Source: an uncultured Verrucomicrobiae bacterium
GTDB lineage: Bacteria; Verrucomicrobiota; Verrucomicrobiia; Limisphaerales; JAFGQR01
Length of the DNA: 64,000 bases
Assembly (NCBI GenBank): GCA_963788655.1
Contig: CAWBHS010000050.1
Location: 16,954-80,953 of the forward strand
Reading direction: 5' to 3'
Below are positions 3,785-57,918 of this stretch, piece after piece; the first letter of the stretch is position 1; every line of letters begins with the position of its first letter. A program made the position numbers and the translations under genes. The notes under the pieces are model-generated. The model did no database searches. It saw only the letters and a list, made by a program, of their open reading frames with translations, and was not told the origin of the DNA.

Positions 3785-3944
3785 GTGCCTCTTGAGTCCG
3801 TCGGCTTGGACCACGTGCTTTCACCGGCGGTGACAATGACGCCGGTCTCGGTCTGCGTGCGACTGACCGTGTCGAACCACGTCCGAGCGCAGGTGCCGGC
3901 GGCCAGATCCTTCACACCCATAGGTCCCGAATAGTCGTAGGTGT

Positions 3945-6341: not shown

Positions 6342-6411
6342 AGAGTCTCAACTCGCGTTGCAGGCAACGTTCATGCCCAGCTTAAGGTCATTTCAATCAC
6401 GAAATGCTTCT

Positions 6412-29499: not shown

Positions 29500-29510
29500 A
29501 ATCCGTTTTG

Positions 29511-29765
29511 TCACTTGGCCAGTCTCGCCGGCTGACGCAGCCGATCCAAAGCCGTCCCCAATTGCGCAAGGTCATCAACTAAAACGGCACCGAGCGGGAT
29601 CAACACCTCACGGTAGGCCGGCATGGCGCGCCCGCCAACAACCAAAGCGATCTCCGCCGGCAACAAGTCACGCAGCCGGGTCAGTTCGTCCGCCAGTTCC
29701 GCATCGTCTTCCGGATAGACCAGGCTCAAGGCCACCGCTCGCGCCTGCTTTTGCCGCGCGGCGCC
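29511..29765 (-). pseudogene. C-terminal fragment of a cobalamin-binding (CarH/LitR-like) regulator
   Basis: ARQKQARAVALSLVYPEDD..L..EL..LR.LLP....LVVGGRA is the end of a B12-binding Rossmann domain; the N-terminus is absent. Confidence 0.65.
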
Positions 29766-29878
29766 CGCTCGACCTGGCGAAGGTCACGTCGGTAGGCTTC
29801 CTGATTTCCGACAAGCAAGCGGGCGCTTTTGACTTGGAAGTAGCTTGGATCAAAGTCATCCAAGCCGCCCGCAGATGA
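29765..29878 (+). pseudogene. C-terminal fragment of a CIA30-family protein
   Basis: PLDLAKVTSVGFLISDKQAGAFDLEVAWIK matches the CIA30 C-terminus. Confidence 0.65.
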
Positions 29879-29910
29879 GATCCTGTTGCGATGGTTTGTA
29901 TCGTTCCGCC

Positions 29911-31125
29911 TTAAGGAACGTGATTGGTGACATGTTCGGTGCTCACGATGCAGTTCCGCTGGTCAAACAGGTTGAAGTAATAGACCTGCGTGCCCTCCGG
30001 CAGGGTGGCCGTAACGCGATCTTCAGTCAGGTCCGCCGGGATGGATTCCCATTTCCGGTCCTGCCAACGCCCGGTATCTTTGGTGAAGTTCAATACAGCT
30101 TTCGCCATCGGAAGCTTTGCTGAATAGGTCGTCCAGACTTTGGTTCCATCGCTTCCCGAGCCAGTGATGGTCGCCAGCGGAGTTCCACCCTTGAGAATGT
30201 TGTCGGCAAAGACGCGAATCTCCTCGGGATTCTCGCCGGCGCCGCCATGGCCATGGGGCATGCGCAGCCGGATACACAAGGTGGGTGGACCGGTGGGCAG
30301 GCGATACGAACGCTGCAACGCATTCATCGTATAAGCGAAGTCATTGCTGCCGGTAACCCACAGCAATGGCATTTCGGCGTGTTTCAAGTAAACGGACGGA
30401 TCCCACCAAGCCATCCACTGGTTGGCGCGTTCTTCACCAAGAGCTGCCAGTTCCTTTTCGAACACCGTGTCCCGATAGAAACCGCACCCGTACACCGGCA
30501 CCGCCAGTTTGAACCGCGGATCCACACCCGCGACGATGCACGTCAGGTAACCGCCCCAGGAAATACCGGTGATGCCGGTGCGCGCCGGGTCCACCGTCGG
30601 CAGCGAACGAATCAACGAGTGCGCGAGGACAACGTCCGCCACCGCTTGATAGGTCCATTGATCCTTCTGCGGCCAATCCATCTGGTTGAATCCACCCCAG
30701 CCGGGCGGGCCGCCTTGCGGGTCGTGGACGAACCGGCCATAGTTGCCAACGGGCACCTGGCCGCAGGTATCCATGGCGATCGCGGCGTAACCACGCCCCA
30801 CCCACAAACGCACCCACTCCTCGAACGCGGTGCCACCACCGCCGTGAACCAACACCATGGCTGGCAACTTTTCTTTCGAATTCGATTCGGGAATTCCCAG
30901 CCAGGCAAATACCCGGGTCGGGCGGCCTTGAAACGGCAGCCCGGTGAAGCTGATCGCCCGCACCTTGTCGGCTTTCGGCCACTGCAAATACTCCCATTGC
31001 GGCACGTCGGCCAGTTGGGGCATGTCCCAGGGAGTGGTCGTGTCGGCCACCGCAGCCGGTGCGACGGTGGGACAGAAAATCAGGACCACCCAAATCAGTG
31101 CTGTAAAAAAGATGCGCAAGTTCAT
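29911..31125 (-). CDS. Secreted alpha/beta-hydrolase (acetylxylan esterase-like)
   Basis: Signal peptide, VLVHGGGG, GISWGG nucleophile elbow, PVYGCG, WDPS, MPHGH. Confidence 0.85.
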   Translation of the reverse strand: MNLRIFFTALIWVVLIFCPTVAPAAVADTTTPWDMPQLADVPQWEYLQWPKADKVRAISFTGLPFQGRPTRVFAWLGIPESNSKEKLPAMVLVHGGGGTAFEEWVRLWVGRGYAAIAMDTCGQVPVGNYGRFVHDPQGGPPGWGGFNQMDWPQKDQWTYQAVADVVLAHSLIRSLPTVDPARTGITGISWGGYLTCIVAGVDPRFKLAVPVYGCGFYRDTVFEKELAALGEERANQWMAWWDPSVYLKHAEMPLLWVTGSNDFAYTMNALQRSYRLPTGPPTLCIRLRMPHGHGGAGENPEEIRVFADNILKGGTPLATITGSGSDGTKVWTTYSAKLPMAKAVLNFTKDTGRWQDRKWESIPADLTEDRVTATLPEGTQVYYFNLFDQRNCIVSTEHVTNHVP

Positions 31126-31160
31126 TCAACGACAACGATGTAGAAATAATTGCTGGCACG

Positions 31161-32158
31161 TCAATGGCGTTTGGGGCTTGCCGCTGAAGGCGCGAGGCGG
31201 ATCGCCGCTCGGATTCCTTTCAATTGCGCCAACTGTTCGGGCGCCAGGGAACCAATCGGTCCCTGCTCCGGATTCCAATTGGGCCCCATGTCCAGGGTGA
31301 CAACGCCCTCCTTGGCCACCACCGCCTTGACCCAGTCCGCCCATTGTTGAGTGGAAAACCGCGTGTCACGGCGCCCCCAACTGGAACCGACGTACGTCAA
31401 GGCATGCCATTGCGAGCCACTCAACCAACGCGAGGACGGGCGGACGGTCAAAGGCTCGTTCAATTCGCCCGCCGTGTAGTCTTCGGCGTCGGTGTAGTGA
31501 ATGACTCGGACGCCTGGATTGAACGTTACGATGGCCTTTGGGTTGCCGTGCTTGACGGCCTGGGCATACACCTGAGCGATGGCGTTGTTGAAGTGAATGT
31601 GTTGGTAACCGCCGTCAAACCACCACCCGGCCACTTTGTCGCCGTAACGGTCCCGGACCATTCCTGGATGACCTCAGCCCATTTCTTCGCGAACTCGAGG
31701 CTGAGCGGTTGGTCTTGCGGGCCTTCGCGCAACCCGAAAGCGCGCTGGGCCCGGGCATCCCGGTTGGGAACCTGGCACGGCAGGTAAAGCATCAGCTTGA
31801 TTCCCTTGGCGTGAAGCGCGTGGAACAAGTCCAGAGGCAGGTCGCGAGTGGAGCATCTCTCGCCAGGCTGATAACCGGTGTAACGGTTGTAAGTGGCGTT
31901 GGGAGAGTTGAGGTAGCCGGAGTTCTGACCCAGCGTGATGACAAAATACCGCGCGCCGGCTTCGACCAGTTGTTGCGCCAGCACTTCGACGTCGAAGTCC
32001 TTGACCTGCGCGAGTTGCCGGTCATTTCCCGGAAGCAAATGCATGAAGACACCGTAGTGGGCGTCTTTAAACCAGTCCGTGTTTGGATTGTTGGATTCGG
32101 CCTGCCCCAGCGAGGACAAGAGAAGCAGTGGCAGGAGGATGGTGGTGACGCGGTTCAT
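31161..32158 (-). CDS. Alpha-L-fucosidase (GH29)-like protein; frameshift ~31660
   Basis: WFKDAHYGVFMH, FDVE, GARYFVITLGQ, RDLPLDL; then RYGDKVAGWWFDG, EDYTAGE. Confidence 0.75.
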
Positions 32159-32222
32159 GGTTTTAAAGTGAGGAGTGCATTGGTTAATGTCGGGGCGAAG
32201 CCAGACGGAACAGGGAGTTGTT

Positions 32223-33282
32223 TCAGCCTCCTTGCACGTCGGGATTCATGTAGCGCTCCAGCAGTATCCTGCTGCAGAGCTTTACCTTCTCCCTGTCTTT
32301 AATCCGTCCGATCAAGCGATGATAGCTGTAGAGCACTTTGAACAGGTGTCCTTCGGCAATCCAATCCCCATTGGGGTTGTCGTTCAGGTTCTGCTTCCGA
32401 CGCCAGCGGTCCTGGTTCTTTGGATCGTTCCAAAAGTCTTTGCTCATGACGGCCTTCAGCGTCGCGCGATTCGGGGACGCGTCGGTCGCCGGATCGAATT
32501 CAGGAACCGGAGCCCCAATATGAGTTCGGTGCCCGGCATGGCCGGCTTTGGCCAGCTCCGGATACCCCATCATATCGAGATTCATCAAAGCCTCGGTGTG
32601 GGTTGTCATGTGCGTGAAATTCGGTCGTCGGATTGAAGGTCGGCCCAGCAACCCCTTGAATCGCGCCAAGCTGTCGAAGGTCGCCTCAATCATGGCCTGC
32701 GTATCGGATATAGGCATTGGAATTGACCGGCGGCTGCGGCCGGATTTTGGCGATCTGATGACTGAGTCCGCATAATCTTTTGACGAGTGCGGGTTGGGCC
32801 ATGTGGGGCACGTCGCGCAATGCCTTGACGGACAGAGACGTGAAAATCACAGCGTGACCATGGGCACGCAAGCCGCCCTGCATGGCCGGCAGCAGTGCCT
32901 TGGGGACCTCCTCGATCAGCGCCCGATCCGCCGGTTCCTTCGCGAGGGGGGCGAATTGCGCCGCCCGCAGTCTGATCACAGTATCCAACTGACTCTTGAT
33001 GCCAAGCGTCGTTGCTTCGCCGAGGTGGTTGTCCCGGCACAAATAGTAGCCAGCGAGAACGCCCGCCCCCCAATGGGCATCGAACCAGCCCTCGGCCCGG
33101 ACCATTCCCGTTAGACCTCTCACCAGATAGGAATCGTCCAAGGCGGCACCGTTGCTCGATTCGGTTTCCGCGGCTCGGGCGGAGTCCGCGATTACTCCGG
33201 GAATGCCAAGTCCACCGATGATGCCCGCCGAAAGCTCGAGGAATTCTTTTCGATTCATTGTGCATTTCTCAATTCGCTTCAT
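32223..33282 (-). CDS. Tat-exported hypothetical protein; frameshift ~32715
   Basis: MNRKEFLEL Tat-like motif; His-rich motifs (DAHWGA, RAHGHAVIF, THMTTH, GHLFK). Confidence 0.6.
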
Positions 33283-33288
33283 TTGTTA

Positions 33289-33417
33289 ACCCAACAATTG
33301 GGATGAGTGACCGCCGCCGACAGAACCGGTGGAGCGCACGAGGCACTCTCGAGTCGCCGTCGGACATCGAGCGGAAGCCCAAGACGGCGCTGCGTCTCCA
33401 CCAAGCAGATGACGGCA
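33289..33417 (-). other. Degenerate attC-like site
   Basis: Minus strand ...GGCGGCGGTCACTCATCCCAATT GTTGGGT TAACAA ATG: R' box 6 nt before a start codon; the left half is decayed. Confidence 0.45.
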
Positions 33418-33630
33418 TACCGGGATCAAATCATGCACAGGCAATTGCCAGCGCAAGCTATGTTCTCCGAGAGATTCGCTTCCTCAACCGGCTAATGCAA
33501 CCGCCAATGGTCAGCATCCCGACGGTTCCGATGACGATACCCGGCAAAGCCGACATGACTTCGTGTTTTCCATCCAAATGAGTCAGGATCATCACCAATA
33601 TCGTCCATCGACTGGTTGGGCGGTGTTGCC

Positions 33631-35697
33631 TCAACTGTGGGGAGGTGTCCAGCGAAACATCATCACGTGGTTCAAACCGGCGTTTTCGAGGAACAGGACA
33701 TACTCACCGTTCTTGCGGAGGGTGACGTTCAGGGCGTTGTCCGAGTCAACGCATCCGCCGCTGCCTTTGAAGCCGTTGATGTCCGGCCGGATCGTGCCGA
33801 CGTATCCGCCGTCCTCCAGCCGATGGACGCGAATAGTCCATAGCCATAAGCGACGAAGAGGTATTTGCCGCGGGCCTGCATTGCCACCGGCGCGCCGCCG
33901 CCATAGCCGGTGTCGGGAGTGTAAGACTTGTCGTTGAGCGGCAGATTGATTTTCCAGCGCTTGATCCTCTTGGTCGGATCGGACCAATGATCGTAGCAGA
34001 CCAGCACGTTGCACGCGTTCTCGTCGGTGCCGGGTGAACCGCCGGCGATCATGATGTCGTCACCAGGGACGTAGAATAGCCGTCGAAGTCGGTCGCCGGT
34101 GAACTCCGGCGGGTACTGGTAAGAAACCTCGGAGGCCCGGCGATAGATGGGATTGCCGCGCGGGTCTATCCCTTCGCAAGGAAGATGGAAGATGGTCCCG
34201 TCTCCCGAGCATTGCCAGATGCCGGCAGCGGCATCCAGGTGCATGAAGCCCCAGCGGGGCTTCCGGTCCACCGAGGCGAACTCCGCAGCGTCTGGCGACA
34301 CCGTCGCCGTTCGTGTCGGTCCAGATGAAGGTTTCGGCGTCCTCCGGCCAGCGTTTGCCGTTCCCGGGGCGCCAGGTGCTGGCACCCGCCACATACCCGC
34401 ACGGGGCCGCCACACAGCCTTGCTCGCCGAACTTGTAGATCTCCAGGTTGCCGGTGCCCTGGGCGCCGCAGTAGAGGAAGAGCTTGCCGCCGATCCGCCG
34501 CACGCCATTGATCAGGCGATGGCTCGGGCCGTGGAGGTCCGTCACGCGGCTGTCGCTGGGATACTTGAACCGATCAACCGTCAGTCCAGCCAGTGACTGC
34601 TCGTGACCAGGCGGCTTGGCTCCAGTCCATGCTGAAGACGTTCTCCTTGGTGTAAACGAGGTTCTCATTGGCCGGGTCGGTGCAGGCCGTATCCAGCCAG
34701 TTGCCCAGGCCGTAAACGTCCCAGAGGCGTTGACCCGAAGGGGAATAGGCTTCGATCAAGGCGTTATACCAGGAGCCAAAGACACTGGCGACGTAGAGAT
34801 TGCCGGCCGCGTCGAAGCCGAGGCCGCGAATCCAATGGAACTTCTGGGGCTGGTATTTTCCCGGCTCGCCCGAAAAGATTCCGCCTTCCGTGCCAAAGGT
34901 GCCCACCTTCTTGGGGGTCCCCGAGACATCGTAGATCCAGACCTGGCTGTGCCGGTTCAACCCGCCCACGAGCAGACGACCCTTCGGATCAAACGTCAGC
35001 GCACAGGGGTTCTCGAAGTCGGTGATCTCCGGCCCGGGCTGACCGTCCTTGGAGAAGGAGATGATCTTCAGGCCGCCGGTAGATCGAACGGCTCCTTGCC
35101 GGGCTTGCCTTGAACGACCCAGATCCGACCGTCAGCACCGACAGCGATCGGTCCCGGGCTCGGGGCGGCGAAGGAGCGAACCTCCTTCATCGTCGCCGTC
35201 TCCAGGACCCGAATTCTGCCTGCCTTGGAATCGCTGAGGTAAAGCTCGCCGCTGCGCAAGGCCAGGCCGTGAATGCTGCCGCCGGTGCTCGGCGTGCGGT
35301 TGTAGGCCTCGTCCCCGAGGCGCGTGCGGAAGAGGCCGACCCCGGTGCCGATGTAAACGTAGGCGTCGTCCACCGCGACCGCGGACGCGCTGCTGCCAAA
35401 CCCGCTGTCATAGTCGTACTTGGTGACGAACTTGCCGGCCTTATACGAGGCGACTCCGCCGTAGCCTTCAGCCACACCCGCGGAGAAAACCGTCCCGTCC
35501 GGCGTCACGGCAATGGCGATGGCGGTGACCGGCACCGATTGGTGCCCCTTCTGAGTGGCGAACGAGTTCGCGAGCCAGGAATGGATGACGGTGCCAGGCA
35601 GGTCGCTCCCCGAAGGCGCGTCCCCGGCTTCGACACGACCCAAGTTGAGCGTGCAGAGGCAGGCCAGCGTTAATTTATGGAAATAGTGTTTTCGCAC
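33631..35697 (-). CDS. Secreted NHL/beta-propeller protein; several frameshifts
   Basis: Signal peptide; AIAVTPDG, IAVGADGRIWV, GLGFDAAGNLYV, FIWTDTNGDG. It starts just after the attC R' box at 35741. Confidence 0.65.
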
Positions 35698-35740
35698 AAA
35701 ATGTCCGTGTTCACTTTCGGACGGAGGCAGCCCTTCCACC

Positions 35741-35833
35741 GCCCAACGTCCCGCATCAGTGACCCCGCGCCACTGATGCTCAGATTGAAACCGCAGCGCC
35801 CTCGCGGGGTTCGCTGCATGCGGTTCGTTAGAC
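35741..35833 (-). other. attC site (cassette 4)
   Basis: R'' GTCTAAC (contains the gene's TAA), internal palindrome CCGCATGCAGCGAACCCCGCG/CGCGGGGTCACTGATGCGG, R' GTTGGGC. Confidence 0.88.
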
Positions 35834-36157
35834 ACGTTTCTTTTCATTTGCAGCTTTCCGAAAGATCACATGCGTTGCGAGGCCAGTGATTATGCCTAGC
35901 ACAAGCCATTGAAGAACTACCGCGAATGGCAATGCGGTCCAGGCGGCGATACCTTCGCTCGGCCTCGATATGAACGCCCATGCGTAAACCAAACCAACAG
36001 CCGGGACATGGATTGCCTCATAGAAGCGGTAACCCGCCGGGTGCTCCGTAATCCAAGTTTGGACTGACTCAATCCAACAAGGAGAAGAGAACACTAATCC
36101 GAGCAAGACGCCCAACAGGCCCGAAACTTTCAAGCGATTCGATAAGGACGGTCGCAT
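35828..36157 (-). CDS. Gene cassette 4: small membrane protein
   Basis: ATG 2 nt after R' GTTAGAC; about 3 hydrophobic segments; stop inside R''. Confidence 0.7.
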   Translation of the reverse strand: MRPSLSNRLKVSGLLGVLLGLVFSSPCWIESVQTWITEHPAGYRFYEAIHVPAVGLVYAWAFISRPSEGIAAWTALPFAVVLQWLVLGIITGLATHVIFRKAANEKKRV

Positions 36158-36159
36158 AC

Positions 36160-36260
36160 GTCTAACGACAAGACCAGCGACGGGAGCCAGCCGCCCCTGA
36201 TGTTCGATTTGTGTCTGCGCTGAACGGCTGGCTCCCGTTCGCTGAACCGTTTGGTTGAAC
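36160..36260 (-). other. attC site (cassette 3)
   Basis: R'' GTTCAAC, palindrome CAGCGAACGGGAGCCAGCCG/CGGCTGGCTCCCGTCGCTG with an extrahelical base, R' GTTAGAC. Confidence 0.88.
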
Positions 36261-36563
36261 AATCTCTTCATCTTTGGCCGCCGAGCTTATCGCATCATAG
36301 GGAAGCAGGAGCGTGTCGATCGCCAAGGAAATCGGCAAATCAACGATCCCCACAATACAAGCGCCTGCCTTCTTCCCGGCTGACCCCTGGAAAGAGCTAC
36401 GGCAAGGTGCCGTGATCAGACCGCCATCGACGCAGGTTGCAGCATATACAGGGGGGAATGGTTCGCTAAGCTCGTGACGCCACGACGTTCTGGTAGCGAT
36501 GGTCCCACATCCCGTGCAGAGGCAGACAAGGCTGGCCGAGACAATGCAAAAACAGGCTTTCAC
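36162..36563 (-). CDS. Gene cassette 3: YceK/YidQ-family lipoprotein
   Basis: Lipobox CTGC-GTI, VYAAT..D, IVDLPISLAIDTLLLPYD; reads through the attC. Confidence 0.8.
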   Translation of the reverse strand: MKACFCIVSASLVCLCTGCGTIATRTSWRHELSEPFPPVYAATCVDGGLITAPCRSSFQGSAGKKAGACIVGIVDLPISLAIDTLLLPYDAISSAAKDEEIVQPNGSANGSQPFSADTNRTSGAAGSRRWSCR

Positions 36564-36571
36564 AAGTATGC

Positions 36572-38791
36572 ACCGGGTAGGTGCAGGCGGTTAGCCCGCC
36601 CACACCCCCCTAAGAACCGTGCGTGAAAGTTTCCCTTCACACGGCTCAAGCCTTTCTAAGGACACGCCCGTGCGGGGTGTCCCGGCAATCTGTTGGATTA
36701 ACGTCAGCATCCTGAGGCCCCTTATACGCTCGCCAGGACCATTCGACCAGTCCTTTCGCACGGCAAGGTCCGCCACGCAAAACAGCGGCGGCGCTCAAAA
36801 TACTGGGTGTAGTTCCGGGTCGTAGGGAGTTGGCCTCCCCCCGGACCTTGATATGACGTTCCAACACCGGTGCGGGCAATGGAATACAGTCGCAGCACCT
36901 TTGCTTCCCCGGTGCGCGGTCCGCATCGCGGGCGAAGAATCCCCAAGTGGTCTCCGATGGCTGAAGTATTTGCGCTTCAGCCAACGCGTAGGATTTCTTG
37001 GGATGTCGTCCGCCGCGCCCAGCGCAGGAGCTGGTAGCGGACGATTCGTTCCATGCGCCAAAACGCTTCGGCCGAACAGCACGTGGCGATGATAGTTGGC
37101 CCAGCCCCGAAGCATCGGGTTGAGCTTTCGGATCAGCGTTTCCGCGCGTTTGTCCGACCGCGCGTTTGATGCACTCGCGGATTTTCTGCACCAACGCCTT
37201 CACCCCGTCCTTGGCGGGTTTGATGAGCAGTTTGTTCCCGTATTTGCGCACGTTCTGTCCCAGAAAGTTGAACCCCGTTTCGTATGTGGGTGATCACGGT
37301 CTTTTGCTCGGAGAGTTCCAGACCGCGTTCGGCCAGGAAGGCCACCACGGCGGGTTTGACGATCTGTTCGAGGGTTTCGCGTTTGCGGGCGGTCACCACG
37401 AAGTCATCCGCGTAACGGATGAAGTTGACCTGGTCGCGTCGTATTTTGATCCGGCTGCGGATCGCCGCTTCCATTCCGTCCAACGTCAGGTTGGCAAGGA
37501 GGGGCGAAATAATCCCGCCCTGTGGGGTGCCTTCCAGCGTCGGGAACAGACGGCCTTTTTCCCAGTAGCCAGCCTCCAGCCATTGGCGTAGCATCCTCTT
37601 GTCCATCGGAATGGACTTGAGAAGCCACGCGTGGCTGATCCGGTCGAAACAGGCTTTGATGTCGCCTTCGAGCACCCAGACCGGCGCGTAGCTTTTGGCC
37701 AGTGCGCAGAAGCACTGGCCGATGGCGTCGGCGCAGGAGCGGCCTTCCCGGAACCCGTAGGAGTTGCGGTCGCCGAGGGTTTCGGCGATGGGTTTGAGGG
37801 CCAGCGCGTGGAGCGCTTGCATGGCGCGGTCCCGCAGGGTGGGGATGCTCAACGGGCGCAGCTTGCCGTTTTTCTTGGGATGTAGTGCCGGCGCAAGGGT
37901 AGCGGCCGGTAACCACGACGTTTCAGGTTCTGTACTGCGGTGAATTTCTGTCTGTCAGTCCTCCATATCACGTTGTCCACACCGGGGGTTTTGGCCCCCT
38001 TGTTTCCCGTCACCCGCTTGACGGCCAAAAGCTTGGCCGAGCGCGAGTGGGTGAGCAGCCACGACAGGGCTTTGGCCTTGCCGTGTTGTCCTGCTCGGAT
38101 TGCCTTTGCAATACGCAACTGTAGCCTCCTGACATCACGCCGGACTTTGGGCCAATCAATGGCTTTCCAGTTCGACGCTTTGTTGGAGGACGCACCAAAG
38201 GATCGCTCCTTCGTCATTTGCTTTTCCTCCTCAAGGATGGTTCGACGGTTTCTCTTGCAAAGAGAGACCTGACCGACGTGGGCATATCCGGTCGCATTAC
38301 ACACCGGCCTTGGCTTGTTCGGTCTTCTCAATGCTGCCTCCGCTTCCCTGCCTTGCGGTTGGGGCGGCCACGACCGGCGTGGCCCGGAGCGACAGCGTTT
38401 CCATGTTCTGCATTCGATACGGGAGAGGTTAGGTCCGCTCTGCTACACCGGCAGTGCTTGTGAGTGTGCGCCGGGCCACGTTAGACAACCCGGACTCGAC
38501 TGCTTGCCATTTTGGCTCGAGCCTTGAACAGCCTCTTATGGCTCGTTTCTCTTGACGATGCTTAAAAGCGTTTATTGGTTTAACCATACTCTCGGACTCT
38601 AGCGCTCCCCCGGCTTGAGGCTGCCAGGTTCGCTACATTACCGGGAAGGCTTCATACCCCTGACAGTAGATCTCGACGATCGGACAGCCCGCCAGACGCA
38701 TGCTTCCGTGGAGTACCTGCGGACACACGCAGGGCTTGGTCAGGATTCATAACTCCCGCCAAGCAGTACCGAATACAACTTCATGTCACAA
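36572..38791 (-). mobile_element. Group II intron (CL1/IIB-like) inserted in an attC R' box
   Basis: 5' end TTGTGACATGAAG; EBS1 loop CTAACG at 38479-38484; domain V GAGCCGTGTGAAGGGAAACTTTCACGCACGGTTC (36614-36647); domain VI with bulged A at 36578. The flanks rejoin as GTTAG|GC. Confidence 0.92.
36722..38217 (-). CDS. ltrA: Group II intron reverse transcriptase/maturase (RVT_N + RT + X, no HNH); several frameshifts
   Basis: GAGGAG RBS; WKAIDW..VRRLQLRIAKA, NKGAKTPGVD, IPTLRDRAMQ, SYGFR.GRS, EGDIKACFD, GTPQGGIISPLLAN, RYADDF, LRGWANY, HIKVRGEAN. Confidence 0.92.
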
Positions 38792-38885
38792 CTAACGGTC
38801 AGGTCACCGACGGCGGCCCCTCCGTGACTCCCGAGTTGCCCGGCGGCCTTACGGGGCCGCCATTCGGTGAACTGGCTGGTTCGGT
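38792..38885 (-). other. attC site (cassette 2), R' interrupted by the intron
   Basis: R'' ACCGAAC, palindrome CACCGAATGGCGGCCCC/GGGGCCGCCGTCGGTG, R' GTTAG|intron|GC. Confidence 0.85.
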
Positions 38886-39134
38886 GATGATCCTCAATTT
38901 CCAGAAGCGGTAACTAGCTCCGAGGGCAAAACCAACCGTCGCCAACGCCAGGAAAAACAGGCCGAGGCTCTCAATGGCATTCTCGCGCGTATTCAATCCA
39001 AATATCTCCGCAAATCTCTGGACCGTATCGCCAACGAGACAGATCGGAAAACCAACCAGCATAGCAATGATCGCGATGGTCAAGCCGGACCAGACAGCCG
39101 AACCAAGCAACGCACTGGTGTGGGGTGTTGTCAT
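38799..39134 (-). CDS. Gene cassette 2: small two-TM membrane protein
   Basis: ATG shortly after R' GTTTGGC; two hydrophobic helices; the tail is encoded by the attC. Confidence 0.65.
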   Translation of the reverse strand: MTTPHTSALLGSAVWSGLTIAIIAMLVGFPICLVGDTVQRFAEIFGLNTRENAIESLGLFFLALATVGFALGASYRFWKLRIITEPASSPNGGPVRPPGNSGVTEGPPSVT

Positions 39135-39148
39135 AAGTGACGCATCAC

Positions 39149-39274
39149 GCCAAACGATAGAACTCACCGAATGCCGCCGGGAACAGGCGCTGGCAGCGAG
39201 TCCAACATCCGAAGAATTCTGCGCCGCGAAACTGCAGCGCGTGGCCGCAGTTCAGGGCAGAGATCTGGTTCAGC
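39149..39274 (-). other. attC site (cassette 1)
   Basis: R'' GCTGAAC 4 nt after the stop, imperfect internal palindrome, R' GTTTGGC. Confidence 0.7.
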
Positions 39275-39278
39275 GTTT

Positions 39279-39736
39279 TCATGTCTGTGGTGGACGCACA
39301 AATAAGCTGCCGAAGGCCAAAGCGACCGACAAGCTGTTGGCGGCACAAAGCCACCAGAACACTCGCCTACCGATCTTCTGTCGAAATGCGTATCGCAGCA
39401 CAAGCCACTCCAGAATGCCGTTAATAAAAACTGCAAACAGGCAAGTCGCTGTCCAAGTGCCGGGATTGAAAGTCCCGATGTCAAAAATCTTATAGAGGAT
39501 GAGGCCAGGGAAATACTCCCACGCGATGCCGACAACTGGAATGAGGATGGCGCCAGCAATGCCGATGCGGCATTCATGCTCAAGTCGGCAACGACACACA
39601 TGCGCAAACTCAATGTGGTCAACCAGCGCACAAAGAAAAACTCCACGACAAGGCCCAACCCGATGGCCCACCAAGAGAATAACCGCTGTTCCAGAAACAG
39701 CGCGGGCCAGACGACATCAGCGAAAATGGATGTCAT
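39279..39736 (-). CDS. Gene cassette 1: membrane protein; frameshift ~39555
   Basis: ADVVWPALFL...MNAASALL joins GAILIPVVGIAWE...WWLCAANSLSV. Confidence 0.7.
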
Positions 39737-39783
39737 GTGTGCAAGCGGTCAATGCGCCGAATGCTGTTTCGACGTACCAAGGG

Positions 39784-39842
39784 GTTGAACAACAGAATTA
39801 GGCAGAAAAAGCGCTGGCCTTATTTCGTTGGGCAGAATTTCC
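39784..39842 (-). other. attI-like site heading the cassette array
   Basis: Minus strand TTCTGCCCAAC...TTCTGCCTAAT-TCTGTT-GTTCAAC. The R box matches the reverse complement of cassette 1 R'' at 6/7; direct repeats upstream; no attC palindrome. Confidence 0.55.
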
Positions 39843-39942
39843 AATTCCATCACGTATGAATTCAAGATCACGCTCTTAGAAAGTCAATCCCTGTTTCCCA
39901 CCGCGATCCAGGCATCCAGGCGAAAGTTTCCGCAGGCTTACC

Positions 39943-40287
39943 CTACCAGTGGTGTCTCTTTACGTTTCCAGTCACGTCATCCACATGGATAAAAAGAGTG
40001 CCATCAGGCGTGGGTGGGATCACTTCGAAAACAACCATCCACTCTCGAGTGGGTAATCCTCGAAATTCGTAAACTGCCTCACACTCCGAGAAACGCTTTA
40101 GTTTGTATCCTTTGCTGGTAAGCCAATCCCTCGCAATCTGGCGCACCTCGGTTTCACTCAGACGCTGCTTCCAGTCCGCCAACACAGGAGACGAACGTGG
40201 TGGGGGAGGCTGATAGACAGCACGGTGGCGCAAACAGCCAGCAGCCAATACCAAAACCATCAGACTGCTTTTGGCGAAGATCCTCAC
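39943..40287 (-). CDS. Small lipoprotein (PepSY-like C-terminus)
   Basis: Lipobox LAAGC; W.V.F...IHVDDVTG; GTGA overlap with the upstream stop. Confidence 0.55.
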   Translation of the reverse strand: MRIFAKSSLMVLVLAAGCLRHRAVYQPPPPRSSPVLADWKQRLSETEVRQIARDWLTSKGYKLKRFSECEAVYEFRGLPTREWMVVFEVIPPTPDGTLFIHVDDVTGNVKRHHW

Positions 40288-41459
40288 GGAACGATCTTCA
40301 GTTGCTGCAACAATTCCATGAGGCAATCGCGCATCGCAGCCTCGTAATCCTTGGCGGCGGTAATTCGCAGCAGTTCCAGGTTGGGTTTGGCGGGAGAATG
40401 GTTGATGCGCGTCTTGCCCATATCATCGACTGCGACGCCGGCTGGCACAAACGTGAACACCGGCGTTGGTTGACAGTCTGCCGGTAGCTTGGCTGCTGAA
40501 TGCCAGCCATCTTGCCGCCGGTAAATGCTCCGGCCGGCGGCGTGCAGCAGGCTGGCGGTACACCACATATTGCGGTCCATTTTCCAGACGAGCTGCCGCC
40601 AGGGACGCAGGTTCTGTCGCATGGCTTGCAGCGGATTCAGTTCGTCGGGACGCACGGTTTGCAGCGCATAGATGAAGAAGTTCTGCAAGGCCGGCGGGGC
40701 GGTTTCGAGCACGTCGGCCTGATGGAATTTCCAATAGCTGCTGTACACGGTATTGGATGCCCCCCGTTGGATGGGAAAGCATGGGCACCAATAGATCGGC
40801 AGCCCGGAGCGCATCAGCCCCACATACGCGTGCGGATCAAGCTGCACGTTCCATTCCGTGCCGCCGGCATCGGCGTTGCCCATGTTGAGATACATCCGAC
40901 CTACCCCGCGGCGGAGCAACTCGGGCTCGCGATTGTAGGCCGCGCAAAGGTCGCGGGCGCTCCCGGTGGCAATGATCGTGACCGGTTCGCGCGAAGTGCG
41001 CAGGACGGTCAGCAACAATTCGACCGCCGCCTGGAATTGCGCCGGCCGGCGGCGTCCGTCGTCTTGCGGGGAAGCGAGTTTCTGGTCCAAGCCGATGGCG
41101 TACGGCACCGACCGCCCGGTCAGTTGTTCCATTTGCTGGACGGGCACACGCCCCGGCATTTGCAATTGCTTCTCACCCTGGTCCAGCAGGATGGCTTTCA
41201 CGTCCAATTCCGGGAGGGCAAAGAGCGTGGCCAGATCGAAATGGTCGTCCGGATCAACGTGCGGATGAAACAGGTCGGTGGAATAGATAACCGGCACGCG
41301 CGGATCGGGCGAACTGGCTGCTTCAGCCGCGCTGGCCGGGAGCAGGGACATGACCAGCAGCGGGCAAAACAAAATTTTGAAAGTCCGGGATGAATAGTAA
41401 CTTACCCAAGGCCAGCGGCCGACCGCGCTCCGCCAGAATCGATGGTTCAAAATGTGCAT
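40284..41459 (-). CDS. Secreted nucleoside hydrolase-like protein
   Basis: VIYSTDLFHPHVDPDDHFDL, IIATGS, EWNVQLDP. Confidence 0.7.
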   Translation of the reverse strand: MHILNHRFWRSAVGRWPWVSYYSSRTFKILFCPLLVMSLLPASAAEAASSPDPRVPVIYSTDLFHPHVDPDDHFDLATLFALPELDVKAILLDQGEKQLQMPGRVPVQQMEQLTGRSVPYAIGLDQKLASPQDDGRRRPAQFQAAVELLLTVLRTSREPVTIIATGSARDLCAAYNREPELLRRGVGRMYLNMGNADAGGTEWNVQLDPHAYVGLMRSGLPIYWCPCFPIQRGASNTVYSSYWKFHQADVLETAPPALQNFFIYALQTVRPDELNPLQAMRQNLRPWRQLVWKMDRNMWCTASLLHAAGRSIYRRQDGWHSAAKLPADCQPTPVFTFVPAGVAVDDMGKTRINHSPAKPNLELLRITAAKDYEAAMRDCLMELLQQLKIVP

Positions 41460-41538
41460 GATTAAAAAGTGTGATCGGGCCTGATTATTCTATCCAACCA
41501 CGATTGGTTCCGGCGCGATGAAGCCCCTTCCAGAACCT

Positions 41539-41709
41539 GGTAGGGCGAGACTCCGTCGAGCCGTGATTTCCCAGAGCGTGTCCGCCCAATCAATTACCGC
41601 GCAGAGGAAGATCATTGATATTCGAACACCGAAGGCTTCCCGCGTTGACATTGTCGGGCAGGTGGAAACGACGCGGAAAAACTTGGGCTCGACTGAGTCT
41701 CGTCCTACC
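41539..41709. repeat. Inverted REP pair
   Basis: GGTAGGGCGAGACTCCGTCGAGCC ... GGCTCGACTGAGTCTCGTCCTACC. Confidence 0.8.
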
Positions 41710-41783
41710 GCATCGGTCGTTCGAGTGAATTCATGTCCGTTCGTGGTTTTCAACGGTGTTAACACTAGTTTGGTTTGGCTTGC

Positions 41784-43100
41784 CTAACGAACCATCAGTT
41801 CGAACTGGTTCGCCTGGCCGCGTTGCCAATGGACGTCTTGGGAAACGCGGCGGCCATCGGGCAGTCGGGCTGTGATACGGTGTGTTCCGTAGAACGCGCG
41901 CACGGCAACCTCGCCCTTTTCGTTGGTGCGGCTTTCGTGCTGGGTCCACCACTTGCCTTTGATCAGTTCCATCAACCGGTCGTAAACCGGCTTGGGTGAC
42001 ATGTCTTTGCGCACCCAGCCGGCGGCGGCTCCTTGCCACGCGCCATTATCGGAAAAGTCCCACCAGGTAATCGCCTCGACGCTGGGATGCGCAAAGAGCG
42101 TGGTGTAAAATCGGGGAACGTAATCCGCCTGTTTGGCTTCCAACTCCGGGGTCGTGGGTCCCCAATTCTCGCCGGGACCGGTGCGCGGACCGCTGACGAT
42201 GGTGGTTTCAGTGAAATGAATCGGCACGCCCAGTTTGCGATAAGTGTCGCAGACCTCCCATACGCGCCGCAACGGCCAGCCGCCACCATGCATGTGGCTT
42301 TGGATGCCGATGGTGTCGAACAACAACTTCCCGCCTTCGCGCAGGCCGTCGAGGATCTTGTAATACGGTGGATCGGTGCGGTAGTCGTTGACGAGCAACG
42401 TGGCTTGCGGATTGGCCGCCCGGGCGATCTTCAAATGCTCCGTTACGTACGGCACCGCTCCCAGGGACATCGCCCATTCGCCCAGGCGCGTCTTGAAACG
42501 GCCCAGGTGCGTGGGCTCGTTCACCACGTCCCACATATCGATCCGGCTTTGGTACCGCGAGACAATGTCGCGCACGCGAGCATGGGACAGCTCGCTGATT
42601 TCAGCAAAGTCCTGCGGCAACCACTTGGGATCGGCGTAATCCCAAACCAGCGGGTGACCTTTGCAAGTGATGCCGTGCTGCCGGGACCAGGCGGCCACCG
42701 CGTCCGTGTACTCGTAAATGGGCTTGCCGCGCTGCGGTTCGTAATAGGGCCAGTAAAAACCGAGCGTCGCATAATTGAGCAGCGCCGCGAACCGGTCGCG
42801 ATAGTCCGTTTCAAGCTGTGGATTTCGGAGTCGTCCAAAGCGAAAAAAGTTGCAACCAAACAGAAAGTCATGGTGCAACTGCTCCACCTTGACGGTAGCG
42901 CCGGGAACTGGTTTGCCATCTGTCTCCAGCACGCGGACAACGCCGTCGCCCTGGCGGTGTTTCGCAATGCGCTCGGGACAGCGCTCCAATATTTCGTCGT
43001 CAGTTGCTTGGGCTGCTTGGGCATTCGCTCGCCAAGCCGGCGGGCAGGCCAGCAACGCGGTAGTGCCGGCCGTCGTTTTCAGGAAGGATCGTCGATTCAT
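41784..43100 (-). CDS. Tat-exported GH10 endo-1,4-beta-xylanase family protein
   Basis: NRRSFLK, KGHPLVW, WDVVNEP, GIQSHMH, HFTET, ITWWD. Confidence 0.9.
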   Translation of the reverse strand: MNRRSFLKTTAGTTALLACPPAWRANAQAAQATDDEILERCPERIAKHRQGDGVVRVLETDGKPVPGATVKVEQLHHDFLFGCNFFRFGRLRNPQLETDYRDRFAALLNYATLGFYWPYYEPQRGKPIYEYTDAVAAWSRQHGITCKGHPLVWDYADPKWLPQDFAEISELSHARVRDIVSRYQSRIDMWDVVNEPTHLGRFKTRLGEWAMSLGAVPYVTEHLKIARAANPQATLLVNDYRTDPPYYKILDGLREGGKLLFDTIGIQSHMHGGGWPLRRVWEVCDTYRKLGVPIHFTETTIVSGPRTGPGENWGPTTPELEAKQADYVPRFYTTLFAHPSVEAITWWDFSDNGAWQGAAAGWVRKDMSPKPVYDRLMELIKGKWWTQHESRTNEKGEVAVRAFYGTHRITARLPDGRRVSQDVHWQRGQANQFELMVR

Positions 43101-43871
43101 AACTTTGCTTGGTTCAACCACTGGATCGCCAGCAGCGTCGCTGCGCGGCCGGTGTTTTATGAGCCTATTGGCCGCAGCCTACGACGAAAAGAATCAAAAT
43201 CGTCCACCCCCGGTGAAGTGGCTTCAATGTCGTGACTTGTAAAGTGCCCTTACTCGGCACATCATAAACAGGCGCTTCCAAATCAATCTTGGTCCCATTT
43301 TTCGGATCCTCGATGATTTGTATCAGACCTCGAAATCCCTGCGGAATTGTCACGTAGGCATCAGGACCAGTCCGCTCGACGCAGGAAACTGCAAGCATGC
43401 CCGCGCGCGTCCGGGAGGCACCCACGAGGGAAGAAACGCGGGCCTTGCTGGTAAGCGGTACCGGACCTGTATGGGTAAGGTTGCTGCGTGGCGATAGCAA
43501 CCGCGCGCACGGCGCAGTCCCCCGCATTGGCCTTGGTAGTCGGCGACTGGTCTGCCGCCGTCATCGCCCCGATCATCGGCTCCAACCGCTGGCGTCCCAT
43601 TCGCCCCTTTCGTCCCGGTGATGCCCTTGACGTTCCCCTTTCCATGATGGCTGCCACACACCTGCTCATGAAGACGTTGGTCCTGGGTGCCCTCCAATAG
43701 GCTCAAACCAGCGGGCGTTCCATCCAGAAGATCATCGAAGACCTTTGCGCTGCCCGCTTCCAAGCCGAGTTCAGCGAAGGCGTTACCGTCATCTCCACCT
43801 CCGAGACCGGCGGCGGCGTCACGTTTAACGTCCCCGCCAACGGAATCGCCAAAGCGGCGGATCAGGAGTGG

Positions 43872-43903
43872 AAATCAGAGCCGACTCACATCGGCCGCTA
43901 CAA
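43872..43903 (-). repeat. GTAG-type REP
   Basis: Minus strand GTAGCGGCCGATGTGAGTCGGCTCTGATTT, related to the 13115 element. Confidence 0.6.
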
Positions 43904-43911
43904 TCGCCCGG

Positions 43912-45330
43912 TCACGTTCGCAGTTGGAGGGCGCGGGCGCGGAAGAGGAAATCAACGATGTTGCCTTCGTGCGGTTGGAGCCAATCCAGTTTGGTGGTGG
44001 GAATGGCGCCCAAATTCAGCCGGTCAATGTTGGTGGCATCCACCAATTGCCGTTGCCAGGCCAGGTCATGCGTGATGGCGCTGGCGATCAGGGTCGGCCC
44101 GATTTGGCTGAGCATTTCCTTTTGCGGACACTGCACCACGGTGACGAAGGGAAACATGTATTCCACGTTGGCAAGGGCTGAATTCGGCGAATCGCAATGG
44201 ATCACCCAGGGCCGGAGCCAGGCGCAGCGTTCCCGCTCGACCAGGCGGGGACCAAATTTCGCCGTCATGTCTGCCACGCCGCCTTCCTTTAGTTTTTCCT
44301 GGATGGACGCATGAATCGCTTGCGCCTGGCCGGGCACCGTAAACGCCGCGAGCCCAGCCTTCGGATCCTCGGGCGGTTTGACGTCCACCGGACCGAGACG
44401 TTCGGCCAACGCCTGGGCGATTTCCTGCGTGTGCCGCGGCGCCCAGATGCTCGAGCAGTTGATGCAACTGCGGCCCCCGTTCAAGAACACGCTGTCCACC
44501 ATCAGATCGAGGTATTCTTCCCATTGGTCCACCACGTCGTCGCCCAGGAGGATTTTGCTGAAGCCCGGCCCGTGGACCTGCACGCGCGTATCGTCCGCGT
44601 ATCGTTGAACGGTATCGGCGCCACCAAAAACCATGGACCGCCCGCAGCGATTGACCACTTCCGCCCCAACGTCGTGGGCGCCGGGGTAAAGGCCAATGGC
44701 TTCCCGCGGAACACCCGCTTGCAGGAACGCCGTGGCGAGGCGGTAGGGAGTCCAAAACTCCTGGGAACCGGGTTTCATCACGAGGCCGATCTGCATCGGA
44801 ATGGCGGGAAGCCAAAGCGTGTGGACGCCTGGCGAATTGGACGGCAGCACCAATCCCAGGACCGGCGATTGCGCCTGGTAACTCACGATGACGCCGCGCG
44901 ACTCGATCCCGTATCCCCGCGTGAGAATATCGAGGTCCAATCCGCGCGTTAGACAATCGATGATGCGGTCCATCTGCGACAGCACGAAATGGTTCTTGGC
45001 CATGTTGGCCCGGCACAGATGCTCCGGCAGTCCCGTGGAGCCGGATTGCTGCCGCACGAAATCTTCGGGCGACTGTTCGCCATCGCCCATCGGCAGCGTG
45101 GATTTCTGATAAAGGTCAGCGGCCTTTTGAGCCATCGTCACCAGTTCGCGCGCGGGAATTTCCCGCAACACGTCGCGGGCGCGCTGGGCATGGCGCAGAT
45201 CTTTGGCCACCAATCCGGCGTTAGCCTGGCTGACCTTGGCCAGCGATTCGCCAGACAGGAAGTGCGTCACCTCGGCAACGTCCAGGCTTTCGTACGGTTG
45301 GCCCCAGCGTAAGACAGGAATGTGTATCAT
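43912..45330 (-). CDS. Aldehyde dehydrogenase / acyl-CoA reductase-like protein
   Basis: VLPSNSPG, MKPG, FGG, HGPGFSK, GRSCINCS, EYMFPF. Confidence 0.85.
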   Translation of the reverse strand: MIHIPVLRWGQPYESLDVAEVTHFLSGESLAKVSQANAGLVAKDLRHAQRARDVLREIPARELVTMAQKAADLYQKSTLPMGDGEQSPEDFVRQQSGSTGLPEHLCRANMAKNHFVLSQMDRIIDCLTRGLDLDILTRGYGIESRGVIVSYQAQSPVLGLVLPSNSPGVHTLWLPAIPMQIGLVMKPGSQEFWTPYRLATAFLQAGVPREAIGLYPGAHDVGAEVVNRCGRSMVFGGADTVQRYADDTRVQVHGPGFSKILLGDDVVDQWEEYLDLMVDSVFLNGGRSCINCSSIWAPRHTQEIAQALAERLGPVDVKPPEDPKAGLAAFTVPGQAQAIHASIQEKLKEGGVADMTAKFGPRLVERERCAWLRPWVIHCDSPNSALANVEYMFPFVTVVQCPQKEMLSQIGPTLIASAITHDLAWQRQLVDATNIDRLNLGAIPTTKLDWLQPHEGNIVDFLFRARALQLRT

Positions 45331-45336
45331 GGTTCG

Positions 45337-46701
45337 TCAGGCGGTGCGCAATCCCGGCAATGACCACGGCTGGCGATATTCCACCGTCACCAACCGGTCT
45401 GATTTTTCGTCGCCAATGATGTGCTCGTTCTGGGCGTCCCAGGTGATCTTGCTGCCGGTGCGATAGGCAATGTTGCCGAGGTGGGCCACGGTGGAAACGA
45501 AATGGGCGAACTCGAGGTTCTCCGCCGGTTGCTGGCGAGACTTCACGCAATCCAGAAAGTTGCGCACGTGCGCCGGACGCGGATCGCCGCTGCCGGGAAA
45601 CTTTTTTGGTTCCAACGCGGCCTTGCGGCGTTCGCCGACAATTTCCCAGCCGCTGTCGGTAAGGAACAGCGTTCCCAACGTGCCGGTAAAGGAAATGCCC
45701 CAAGGCCGGCCGTTCAGCCCGATGCCGATGCCGTTCTTGTGTTCCCAAATCAGTTCGTAAGTCGGGAATTCATAAACGGTGGTTTGCGAATCGGGAGTTT
45801 GCCAGGCGTTCTCGGGATCGTAATTGCCGCCACTCGAAAACACCGTCCGCGGCGGGGTGGGCCCCATCGCCCACAGCATGATGTTGATCAAATGGACGCC
45901 CCAATCGGTCATCAGGCCGCCGGCATAATCCCAGAACCAGCGAAAGTTGAAATGGAAGCGGTTCGGATTGAACGGCCGTTTTGGGGCCGGGCCGAGCCAC
46001 ATATCGTAATCTACGCCCGCGGGCGGGTCGGTGTCTTCGGCTTTGGGCATTGGCGTGATCCAATCGTGAAAGGCCCAACCGCGCACCAAGCTCACTTGGC
46101 CCAGCTTGCCGGATTGCACGAACTCGACGGCGCCCTTCCAATGCTGGCCACTGCGCCATTGGGTGCCCATTTGGACGATGCGATTATGTTGCTTGGCGGC
46201 TTCGAGCATGGCGCGGCCCTCGGCAATGCTGGTCGCCAGCGGTTTCTCGACATACACGTCCTTGTGCGCCTGGCAGGCGAAGACGGTCGGCATGGCATGC
46301 CAGTGGTCGGGCGTGGCGACGAGCACCACGTCCACGTCTTTGCGTTCGATGACGCGTCGAAAATCTTTGACCGTGTCCGGCTGGTGGCCGCGTTGTTTCT
46401 CGACCAACTCCGCGACCTGCGCCAGATGCGCGTCGTCCACGTCGCAAATCACCGGGCAATCCACTTCATCATTCAAGAAGAACGTGGCCAGGTCGCCGCG
46501 TCCCATGCCACCACAGCCAATGAGACCCAGACGGACTTTGGTATTGGGCCGGACGGCGGCGCGGGCAGTGCCTTGAGACGTTAAAATCAGACCGCCGAAC
46601 GCCGGCACCGCCGCGGTGGCCAGCGTGGAGGTTTGGAGAAATTGCCGGCGCGAAACCGGCGGCGGTTTCGACGTTCGCACTCTGGATGAATTGGCGATCA
46701 T
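45337..46701 (-). CDS. Tat-exported Gfo/Idh/MocA oxidoreductase
   Basis: SRRQFL, GLIGCGGMG, ATPDHWH, VYVEKP, WLGPAP, DWGVH. Confidence 0.92.
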   Translation of the reverse strand: MIANSSRVRTSKPPPVSRRQFLQTSTLATAAVPAFGGLILTSQGTARAAVRPNTKVRLGLIGCGGMGRGDLATFFLNDEVDCPVICDVDDAHLAQVAELVEKQRGHQPDTVKDFRRVIERKDVDVVLVATPDHWHAMPTVFACQAHKDVYVEKPLATSIAEGRAMLEAAKQHNRIVQMGTQWRSGQHWKGAVEFVQSGKLGQVSLVRGWAFHDWITPMPKAEDTDPPAGVDYDMWLGPAPKRPFNPNRFHFNFRWFWDYAGGLMTDWGVHLINIMLWAMGPTPPRTVFSSGGNYDPENAWQTPDSQTTVYEFPTYELIWEHKNGIGIGLNGRPWGISFTGTLGTLFLTDSGWEIVGERRKAALEPKKFPGSGDPRPAHVRNFLDCVKSRQQPAENLEFAHFVSTVAHLGNIAYRTGSKITWDAQNEHIIGDEKSDRLVTVEYRQPWSLPGLRTA

Positions 46702-57699: not shown

Positions 57700-57918
57700 A
57701 TGAGCATGACGGGTACAGTCAAGAACGGTGTGGTGGTTCTGCCTCCCGGGACGAATCTTCCAGAGGGGGCCAAAGTGAGAATTGAACCACTGAAGCTCAC
57801 GTCCGCCGCCGATCCGTTCGTGGCGGCTGTGGAGAAACTGGCCAAGCCCCGTTCACATCTACCGAAGGACTACGCGCTCAACCATGGTCATTACTTGCGG
57901 GGTGAACCGAAGAAATGA
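57700..57918 (+). CDS. Putative antitoxin
   Basis: TGTVKNGVVVL...LPEGAKV...D.ALNH.HYL; ATGA overlap with the PIN gene. Confidence 0.75.
   Translation: MSMTGTVKNGVVVLPPGTNLPEGAKVRIEPLKLTSAADPFVAAVEKLAKPRSHLPKDYALNHGHYLRGEPKK

Follow-up and report, generated by a model that had tools for sequence, protein, structure and literature searches.

Integrons are the main gene-capture system of bacteria. The stretch analyzed here, referred to as the window, comprises 64,000 nucleotides (nt) of contig CAWBHS010000050.1 from an uncultured Verrucomicrobiae bacterium; its G+C content is 59%, and its genes look Verrucomicrobia-like, including glycoside hydrolases, a sulfatase, and TAT-signal (twin-arginine translocation) oxidoreductases. 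Its minus strand carries, from 38791 to 36572, a group II intron of 2220 nt, recognized by reading of the sequence and by homology, which splits the R′ box of an integron attC site as GTTAG|GC, such that removal of the intron gives GTTAGGC. A first-pass annotation had described the element in these terms, and its coordinates and letters were correct, with the minus strand applying throughout. The intron and its flanks comprise the following features.

36572..38791, minus strand: group II intron, with Rfam matches RF00029 and RF02012 above gathering scores and ends 5′-UUGUG...GGU-3′
38792..38885, minus strand: 5′ part of the occupied attC site, with R″ ACCGAAC at 38879-38885, GTTAG (the first five R′ bases) at 38792-38796, and intron-binding site 1 (IBS1), CGTTAG, at 38792-38797
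38602..38734, minus strand: domain I core, Rfam group-II-D1D4-7 (RF02012, a domain I-IV family), 60.6 bits against a gathering score of 34
38471..38493, minus strand: domain I hairpin CCGGGTTGTCTAACGTGGCCCGG, whose loop CUAACG (38479-38484) is exon-binding site 1 (EBS1), the exact complement of the last six 5′-exon bases
36725..38217, minus strand: remnant of the reverse transcriptase (RT)/maturase gene, from Pfam matches on pieces of open reading frame (ORF), three-frame reading, tblastn extent, and a list of insertions and deletions (indels) relative to the intact ORFs of the related introns L001 and L002
36572..36649, minus strand: domains V and VI, Rfam RF00029, 62 bits against a gathering score of 40
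36570..36571, minus strand: first two bases of the 3′ exon, GC, completing R′ as GTTAGGC (read from the sequence)

An Rfam scan of the window returned exactly two RNA families above gathering score, both of them minus-strand pieces of this intron. Domain V (36614-36647, minus strand) begins with GAGC and contains the AGC triad, and in domain VI an A (36578) is bulged, 7 nt short of the intron 3′ end; with the domain V/VI and domain I matches, all the marks by which a group II ribozyme was judged here are present. About 575 nt of the intron lie 5′ of the RT ORF. Read on the minus strand, the 5′ junction is ...GACCGTTAG|TTGTGACATG at 38792|38791 and the 3′ junction is ...CCTACCCGGT|GCATAC at 36572|36571, the intron itself beginning UUGUGACAUG... 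and finishing ...CCUACCCGGU. Over its whole length it aligns with the introns of L001 (86% identity), L002 (85%), and L004, and this homology, together with covariation between EBS1 and IBS1, fixes its boundaries. To place the intron ends, one profile was made from the conserved start (xxGYGACryGAwGU) for the 5′ side and another from domains V and VI for the 3′ side. A consensus fold of domain I from 15 relatives has compensatory changes in 66 of its 90 pairs. The ends of the introns also vary together: all 15 introns starting with U have G as the penultimate base (ending in ...GGU or ...GGC), as does the window copy (38791, 36573), while all 13 starting with G have A in that position, as does the single intron starting with A. 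A contact between the first and penultimate nucleotides is known in group II introns, and the covariation observed here fits it.

The first-pass annotation had also matched the domain I loop CUAACG to the CGTTAG at the end of the 5′ exon. This was confirmed in an alignment of 15 relatives, where the EBS1 hairpin occupies columns 392-414 and its stem (392-398 with 408-414) shows compensatory changes. In a structure-blind scan of 518 alignment columns, the best partners of exon positions −6 to −2 were columns 406, 405, 404, 403, and 402, respectively, with Watson-Crick pairs in 14-15 of 15 sequences, and column 401 ranked second for exon position −1 (12/15 paired). All six bases pair for EBS1 CUAACG with exon CGUUAG (window, L001, L002, and L063), CGAACG with CGUUCG (L032), CAUAAC with GUUAUG (L027), CCUAAC with GUUAGG (L077), GCGAAC with GUUCGC (L054), UAUAAC with GUUAUA (L045), and, counting one G-U pair, UAACGG with CCGUUG (L025). 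The triplet that complements the invariant R′ GTT, AAC, is found in every EBS1 loop, and the register varies by sub-lineage, with insertion after GTTN, GTTNN, or GTTNNN. The same exon end recurs in independent relatives, where the 5′ exon ends after an imperfect palindrome (GAGCGTTAG in L001, GGTCGTTAG in L002, and GTCGTTAT in L004). The covariation at five exon positions and this recurrence support the earlier proposal that attC sites are targeted through EBS1.

Two further attC sites and a cassette gene lie downstream of the intron, in the direction in which it is read.

36160..36260, minus strand: unoccupied attC site, with R″ GTTCAAC and R′ GTTAGAC
35741..35833, minus strand: third attC site, with R″ GTCTAAC and R′ GTTGGGC
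36162..36563, minus strand (the intron strand): downstream cassette ORF from the ORF list, with a weak match to Pfam PF07119 (DUF1375; E 1.2e-6)

The attC identity of these sites was assessed with two covariance models, R1, built from five unoccupied sites (one from the window and four from L001 and L002) and from no intron-occupied site, and R2, built from 12 sites. They replaced a constrained-fold scan for AAC...GTT across the whole window, which gave 104 mostly spurious candidates; a generic inverted-repeat finder had recovered one of the three window sites. R1 found further L002 copies, on which it had not been trained, at 98-102 bits. The occupied window site, an imperfect inverted repeat with two extra bases on its 5′ arm, scored 41.6 bits with R1 (E 2.8e-9, over 38790-38885) and 60.5 bits with R2; R1 gave 38.7 bits at the L001 intron junction, and with R2 the occupied sites in L002 and L004 were also recovered, at 29.8 and 22.7 bits, respectively. 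The CGTTAG at 36162-36167, which the first-pass annotation had singled out as an unoccupied R′, is real on the minus strand; the site whose R′ it terminates (36160-36260; R1 103.3 bits, R2 94.8 bits) is the top-scoring attC match of the window. The third site scored 38.5 bits with R1 and 65.7 bits with R2. In an alignment of 12 sites, the ends are RYYYAAC and GTTRRRY-like, each GTT or GAT is preceded by a C, and all 12 sites carry two single-base bulges, both on the 5′ arm. The paired cells (91.5%) and compensatory changes (22 of 32 pairs) of this alignment, which had been fitted to the model, were reached by none of 500 shuffles. The sites therefore show what defines integron attC here, namely an imperfect inverted repeat, R″/R′-like boxes, extra bases on one arm, and repetition between cassettes.

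Two cassette-like ORFs lie on the intron strand in the window. The ORF downstream of the intron starts 9 nt past the 3′ splice site and has a lipoprotein-like N-terminus. A small minus-strand ORF (within 35828-36271) precedes the third site, and its TAA stop codon (35828-35830) falls inside the R″ of that site. Weak matches to the attC model were also seen on the array strand at 39149-39274 (minus strand, 15.2 bits) and 33517-33621 (minus strand, 13.2 bits); lying among small ORFs with no Pfam match, they may mark an attC cluster that was once longer.

The same repeat family is found next to an integron integrase in L002. There, a 343-amino-acid (aa) tyrosine recombinase (L002:4577-5608, minus strand) is a full-length match to the integron integrase family TIGR02249 (476.9 bits against a cut-off of 265), and about nine attC-model matches lie on the strand opposite to, and divergent from, the integrase gene, with small ORFs between them. 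Spacing between attC sites is about 450-640 nt. The L002 intron, whose RT is 78% identical to that of the window, sits in the second of the approximately nine matches, on the cassette strand. L002 is thus a complete integron, and the model that accepted the window flank as attC is anchored on this integrase-adjacent array. Just beyond the integrase, a 692-aa large serine recombinase (Resolvase, Recombinase, and Zn ribbon domains) is encoded at L002:1983-4061 (plus strand), so the L002 integron may be on a mobile island. At the other end, a BsuBI/PstI-type restriction endonuclease gene (L002:13583-14704, minus strand) lies just past the last attC match (11925-12017).

The introns are oriented as the cassettes are. 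All 33 independent attC-model matches in the loci and all three in the window, from about 13 separate arrays, are on the intron/RT strand; where the loci match on the minus strand, the same palindromes are being read in mirror image, at lower scores. In L002, the intron strand runs away from intI, which is the cassette direction. The sense orientation that had been read from the window alone is therefore supported for the intron lineage.

The protein encoded by the intron had been described as an RT with an RVT_N extension and no HNH domain. In the window, RVT_N and RVT_1 are recognizable by Pfam in separate ORF pieces; however, the gene is broken, with 13 frame-disrupting indels by global DNA alignment with the intact 494-aa ORF of L001. 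These are mostly single-base insertions concentrated in the 3′ third, and the reading frame shifts repeatedly (tblastn with the intact RT merged the frames without resolving the frameshifts, which the global alignment did). Twelve of the 13 indels add bases to the window copy, mostly one each (36817-37877, minus strand), and about eight are at or beside a CG dinucleotide, which could reflect real decay or a consensus artifact of a multi-copy repeat. The other long genes of the window are open, and the breaks therefore look like decay of a single copy rather than poor assembly, with consensus errors in a multi-copy repeat also possible.

In contrast to the window copy, relatives L001 and L002 have intact RT/maturase ORFs. 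The intact relatives' RT is 494 aa long and has RVT_N, RVT_1, and GIIM domains with no HNH match. The L001 RT aligned with the T.el4h RT (PDB 6me0) at 541 bits over residues 2-475, compared to 133 bits with LtrA and 98-118 bits with class IIC RTs (118 with the GsI-IIC RT), so it stands apart from class IIC. Its match to the 562-aa T.el4h RT ends at residue 480 of the latter, and the relatives lack the C-terminal endonuclease domain. Introns of T. elongatus have been called CL/IIB1 (PMC2882425), and Th.e.I1 and E.c.I5 are placed under CL1A in a source that also states a C-terminal endonuclease domain for CL1 intron-encoded proteins (PMC3552965), a domain not found in the intact relatives here. 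A label of CL1/IIB-like without HNH appears reasonable for the lineage from its sequences, where CL1 denotes similarity to one solved RT and to published passages rather than a position in a tree of labeled references. A class IIC reading was rejected: the RT is far nearer to IIB1 than to IIC, and every scored site has the intron on the attC top strand.

Relatives of the intron are numerous. Protein clusters with 88-95% identity to a clean 198-aa stretch of the window RT number more than 120. Almost all are 494 aa long with RVT_N, RVT_1, and GIIM, and most come from contigs about 2 kb long, which suggests a very common, repeated element in Verrucomicrobiota-type metagenomes. A genome scan for RT relatives gave 79 loci, with RT identities to the window of 81% in L001 (Limisphaerales), 78% in L002 (Verrucomicrobiae), 73% in L003 (partial), 65% in L004 (Terriglobales), 62% in L006, and 48-57% in the rest. 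A search of the PLSDB plasmid database with the RT of L038, a member of the group described below, returned 1832 records, only three of them above 60% identity, and no close relatives.

Insertion behind GTT is concentrated in one group of the RT tree. A FastTree phylogeny of 84 RT ORFs and the window fragment placed the window in a 32-row group with SH-like (Shimodaira-Hasegawa-like) support of 96, and IQ-TREE, run without the window fragment and two very long branches, separated 31 rows from 51 others with an SH-aLRT (SH-like approximate likelihood ratio test) value of 99, both values referring to unrooted trees. Of the 24 group members with a readable 5′ flank, 19 have a 5′ exon ending in GTT plus 1-3 nt, as does the window copy; outside the group, the count is 1 of 21. 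Seven in-group flanks were cut by contig ends. The homologous introns occupy targets of one kind, and 12 junctions in the group are matched by the attC model. By folding energy, 14 of 20 GTT-type flanks form hairpins closed by AAC...GTT at or below the fifth percentile of 600 background GTT sites, and four of the other six were matched by the attC model. The energy test's single-hairpin filter was wrong to discard L002, L004, L040, and L045, which are attC sites whose loops branch. Group members come from Verrucomicrobiota, Terriglobales, Rokubacteriota, several Desulfobacterota, Bacteroidales, a gammaproteobacterium, and others.

Individual loci add further observations. One Desulfatiglandales chromosome has several group-member copies at different attC sites (L051:4132-8642, L051:11736-14300, and L054:6356-8582). 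Two full introns there lie head to tail, meeting at 6357|6358, and after them a third intron, unlike these, begins at 8583; the copies suggest active homing within one array and insertion beside another intron's 3′ end. At L022:9882-11910 and L034:8619-10695 (plus strand), two group members in non-GTT targets are directly followed by pairs of tyrosine recombinase genes and may be located in a different kind of mobile element. At L052:3849-7159 (plus strand), an RT from outside the group has four attC-model matches within 1 kb downstream on its own strand, and the 5′ end of its intron could not be placed; other CL1-type introns may also occur in arrays.

We consider it probable that the window element is a decayed copy of a mobile IIB-type intron with an endonuclease-less, CL/IIB1-like RT, belonging to a lineage that homes into the top strand of attC. 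By this account, the six-base EBS1 loop would pair with the start of the R′ box, and the intron ribonucleoprotein (RNP) would reverse-splice into the attC top strand; for the sub-lineage of the window copy, the target would be CGTTAG and the cut GTTAG|GC. Lacking an endonuclease, the intron would need a nascent DNA strand as primer, and such priming is described for other endonuclease-less introns (PMC4424553). The intron and the cassettes point the same way, so the intron RNA would come from read-through of the array, and splicing would then rejoin the transcript. The integrase crossover is at G|TT of R′. An intron inserted 3′ of that point would be part of the downstream cassette and could move with it. 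With its RT broken, the window copy itself would at most splice, or move with a maturase from an intact copy elsewhere.

Several observations weigh against this interpretation, in addition to the broken RT gene of the window, the unrooted tree, and the basis of the CL1 label. Five in-group introns are at non-GTT sites (L006, L022, L034, L037, and L051b, the last of which sits directly behind another intron copy), and two with GTT-type flanks, L027 and L063, had no attC signal in either the attC-model or the hairpin-energy test. The rows are also not all independent, since the flanks of L040 and L041 do not differ and one chromosome carries both L051 and L054. Other points bear on specific alternatives and are taken up with them.

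The EBS1 pairing may not be what mainly selects the site. Recognition could instead be chiefly structural or protein-mediated, as in class IIC introns, with the RNP reading the attC stem-loop or single-stranded DNA and EBS1 setting the register. Only two of the ten CGTTAG sites in the window are attC R′ ends, so six-base pairing alone is unlikely to explain the preference for attC; yet the window copy, L001, and L002 all occupy such ends, and L004 is at an attC end reading CGTTAT. One EBS1-IBS1 mismatch (5/6 pairs) is tolerated in L004, L013, L019, L038, and L040. Among the 15 aligned sequences, no column paired consistently with exon positions −7 to −14 or +1, as partners in EBS2 or EBS3 would, the relevant region being poorly aligned, and a search for six-base EBS2 complementarity gave matches at the chance rate (about 1.6 expected per intron) in non-homologous positions. 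Two EBS2 candidates, GTCAGG (window intron position 128) and TCCAGG (L001 position 124), lie in a predicted stem and are not claimed. EBS2 and EBS3 may be either absent or masked by the alignment, and because the EBS2 hairpin region aligns poorly across the group, a pairing could have been missed. A possible role for the top-strand hairpin has also been raised by Sonbol and Siam (PMC7923331). However, folding of the top strand into a hairpin would pair R′ with R″ and leave it less open to EBS1. We give this alternative substantial weight, short of preferring it, and it would refine the mechanism only. Single-strandedness, the hairpin, or a protein probably contributes to specificity in any case.

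A second alternative is that the hairpins are not attC at all but another repeat, such as terminator-like or REP-like (repetitive extragenic palindromic) palindromes, which the intron would target much as class IIC introns do terminators. No integrase was found in the 64-kb window by Pfam on 57 ORFs or by phmmer with the L002 integrase against all ORFs of at least 150 aa, and even an unfiltered model search of 28000-46000 detected only three convincing attC sites; what the window contains is thus a three-site attC cluster and not a complete integron. An integrase was present within the 7-kb flanks of only one locus, L002, and the attC models were built in this analysis from a single Verrucomicrobial attC family. 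The earlier claim of integron parasitism accordingly stands as regards real attC sites and an intron of the same kind in a true integron, but not as regards an integron in the window. Opposing the palindrome explanation, the same repeat family forms the array of about nine sites beside the full-length integrase, the ends, the two 5′-arm bulges, and the spacing with small ORFs are as described above, a cassette stop codon lies inside an R″, and no T-run follows the hairpins. We regard it as very improbable. More improbable still is a chance insertion of an ordinary CL1-type intron beside a palindrome with no lineage preference, since, although a single locus cannot show preference and CL-type introns are generally described as homing to gene-specific sites (PMC4424553), the same exon end occurs in independent genomes of different phyla with EBS1 covarying, and the trait is concentrated in one RT group.

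A broader extension can be proposed, which we hold only tentatively and consider possible rather than probable. One lineage of endonuclease-less CL1-like introns would have specialized on integrons across Verrucomicrobiota, Acidobacteriota, Desulfobacterota, Bacteroidota, Rokubacteriota, and other phyla, its AAC-centered EBS1 reading the GTT of the sense-strand R′ without EBS2. Its introns, inserted immediately past the integrase crossover on the 3′ side, would become the 5′ end of the next cassette and could be carried by the integrase, a switch of intron ends from G...AY to U...GU would be part of the adaptation, and the lineage would constitute a second, independent, and possibly commoner integron parasite than the IIC-attC introns.

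The findings turn an anecdote into a rule, in that an RT group from many phyla has a targeting code (AAC in EBS1, GTT in R′) and members that are always in cassette sense. They also provide a testable case of a IIB intron that possibly works with EBS1 alone, a case in nature where the first and penultimate bases of an intron vary together, and a potential route for introns to travel as part of cassettes. For annotation, introns that split attC sites make cassette arrays look broken. The window copy itself has decayed to a relic, in a small attC cluster that lacks an integrase. Far from that cluster, the window also encodes two toxin-antitoxin-type proteins, a PemK/MazF-like toxin (3543-3836, minus strand) and a PIN-domain protein (57915-58316, plus strand).

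Insertion at attC is listed as a property of class IIC introns in reviews (PMC4424553). Class IIC-attC introns such as S.ma.I2 resemble the present lineage in being mobile, endonuclease-less, located at attC, and reliant on a short target pairing (PMC3001079; PMC4424553; PMC7923331). However, as described there, they belong to another ribozyme and RT class, use the attC bottom strand, and insert opposite to cassette transcription (PMC3001079; PMC7923331), in contrast to the top-strand, sense insertion seen here. Introns of the T.el4h/EcI5 type (CL/IIB1) supply the closest solved RT (PDB 6me0) and share an IIB-like ribozyme, a long domain I, and an EBS1 in a terminal loop (PMC2882425). As portrayed in the same source, they differ by having an endonuclease domain (562 aa vs. 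494 aa), GUGYG...AY ends, and specific sites recognized via EBS1, EBS2, and EBS3 (PMC2882425); the present lineage has U...GU ends in the window copy and its like, and no EBS2 or EBS3 pairing was found in it.

Non-IIC introns in cassette arrays have been mentioned before. A 2022 survey of Shewanella noted in passing CL1 and class E introns in two integrons, with no target analysis (PMC9229058); these resemble the present lineage in being non-IIC introns of cassette arrays. The closest precedent is UHB.I2, reported by Sonbol and Siam in 2021 from a cassette array in a soda-lake metagenome as an IIB1 intron with an endonuclease-less CL1 RT (PMC7923331). Like the window intron, it is of IIB1 type, has an RT without endonuclease, is in cassette orientation, and lies immediately after an attC site; its ends, 5′-UUGCG..GU-3′, and those of the window copy, UUGUG..GU, are both non-canonical (PMC7923331). 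It was presented as one intact case whose homologues have poorly conserved exons and whose EBS3 bulge is missing, and the published description, on which this comparison is based, draws no link between EBS1 and R′, whereas here a target rule extends across about 20 introns (PMC7923331). The window copy also differs in its broken RT, its Verrucomicrobia-like genome, and the lack of an integrase nearby. The suggestion of an independent route to integron parasitism consequently holds for the RT, which is not IIC-like (541 vs. 118 bits), but was preceded by the 2021 report. A full-text literature search, with subscription journals outside its reach, found no CL1-type lineage homing to attC and no EBS1-R′ pairing rule. 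UHB.I2 thus stands as the one published precedent for the kind of intron to which the decayed window copy belongs, and what seems to be new is the targeting rule that holds across the lineage.

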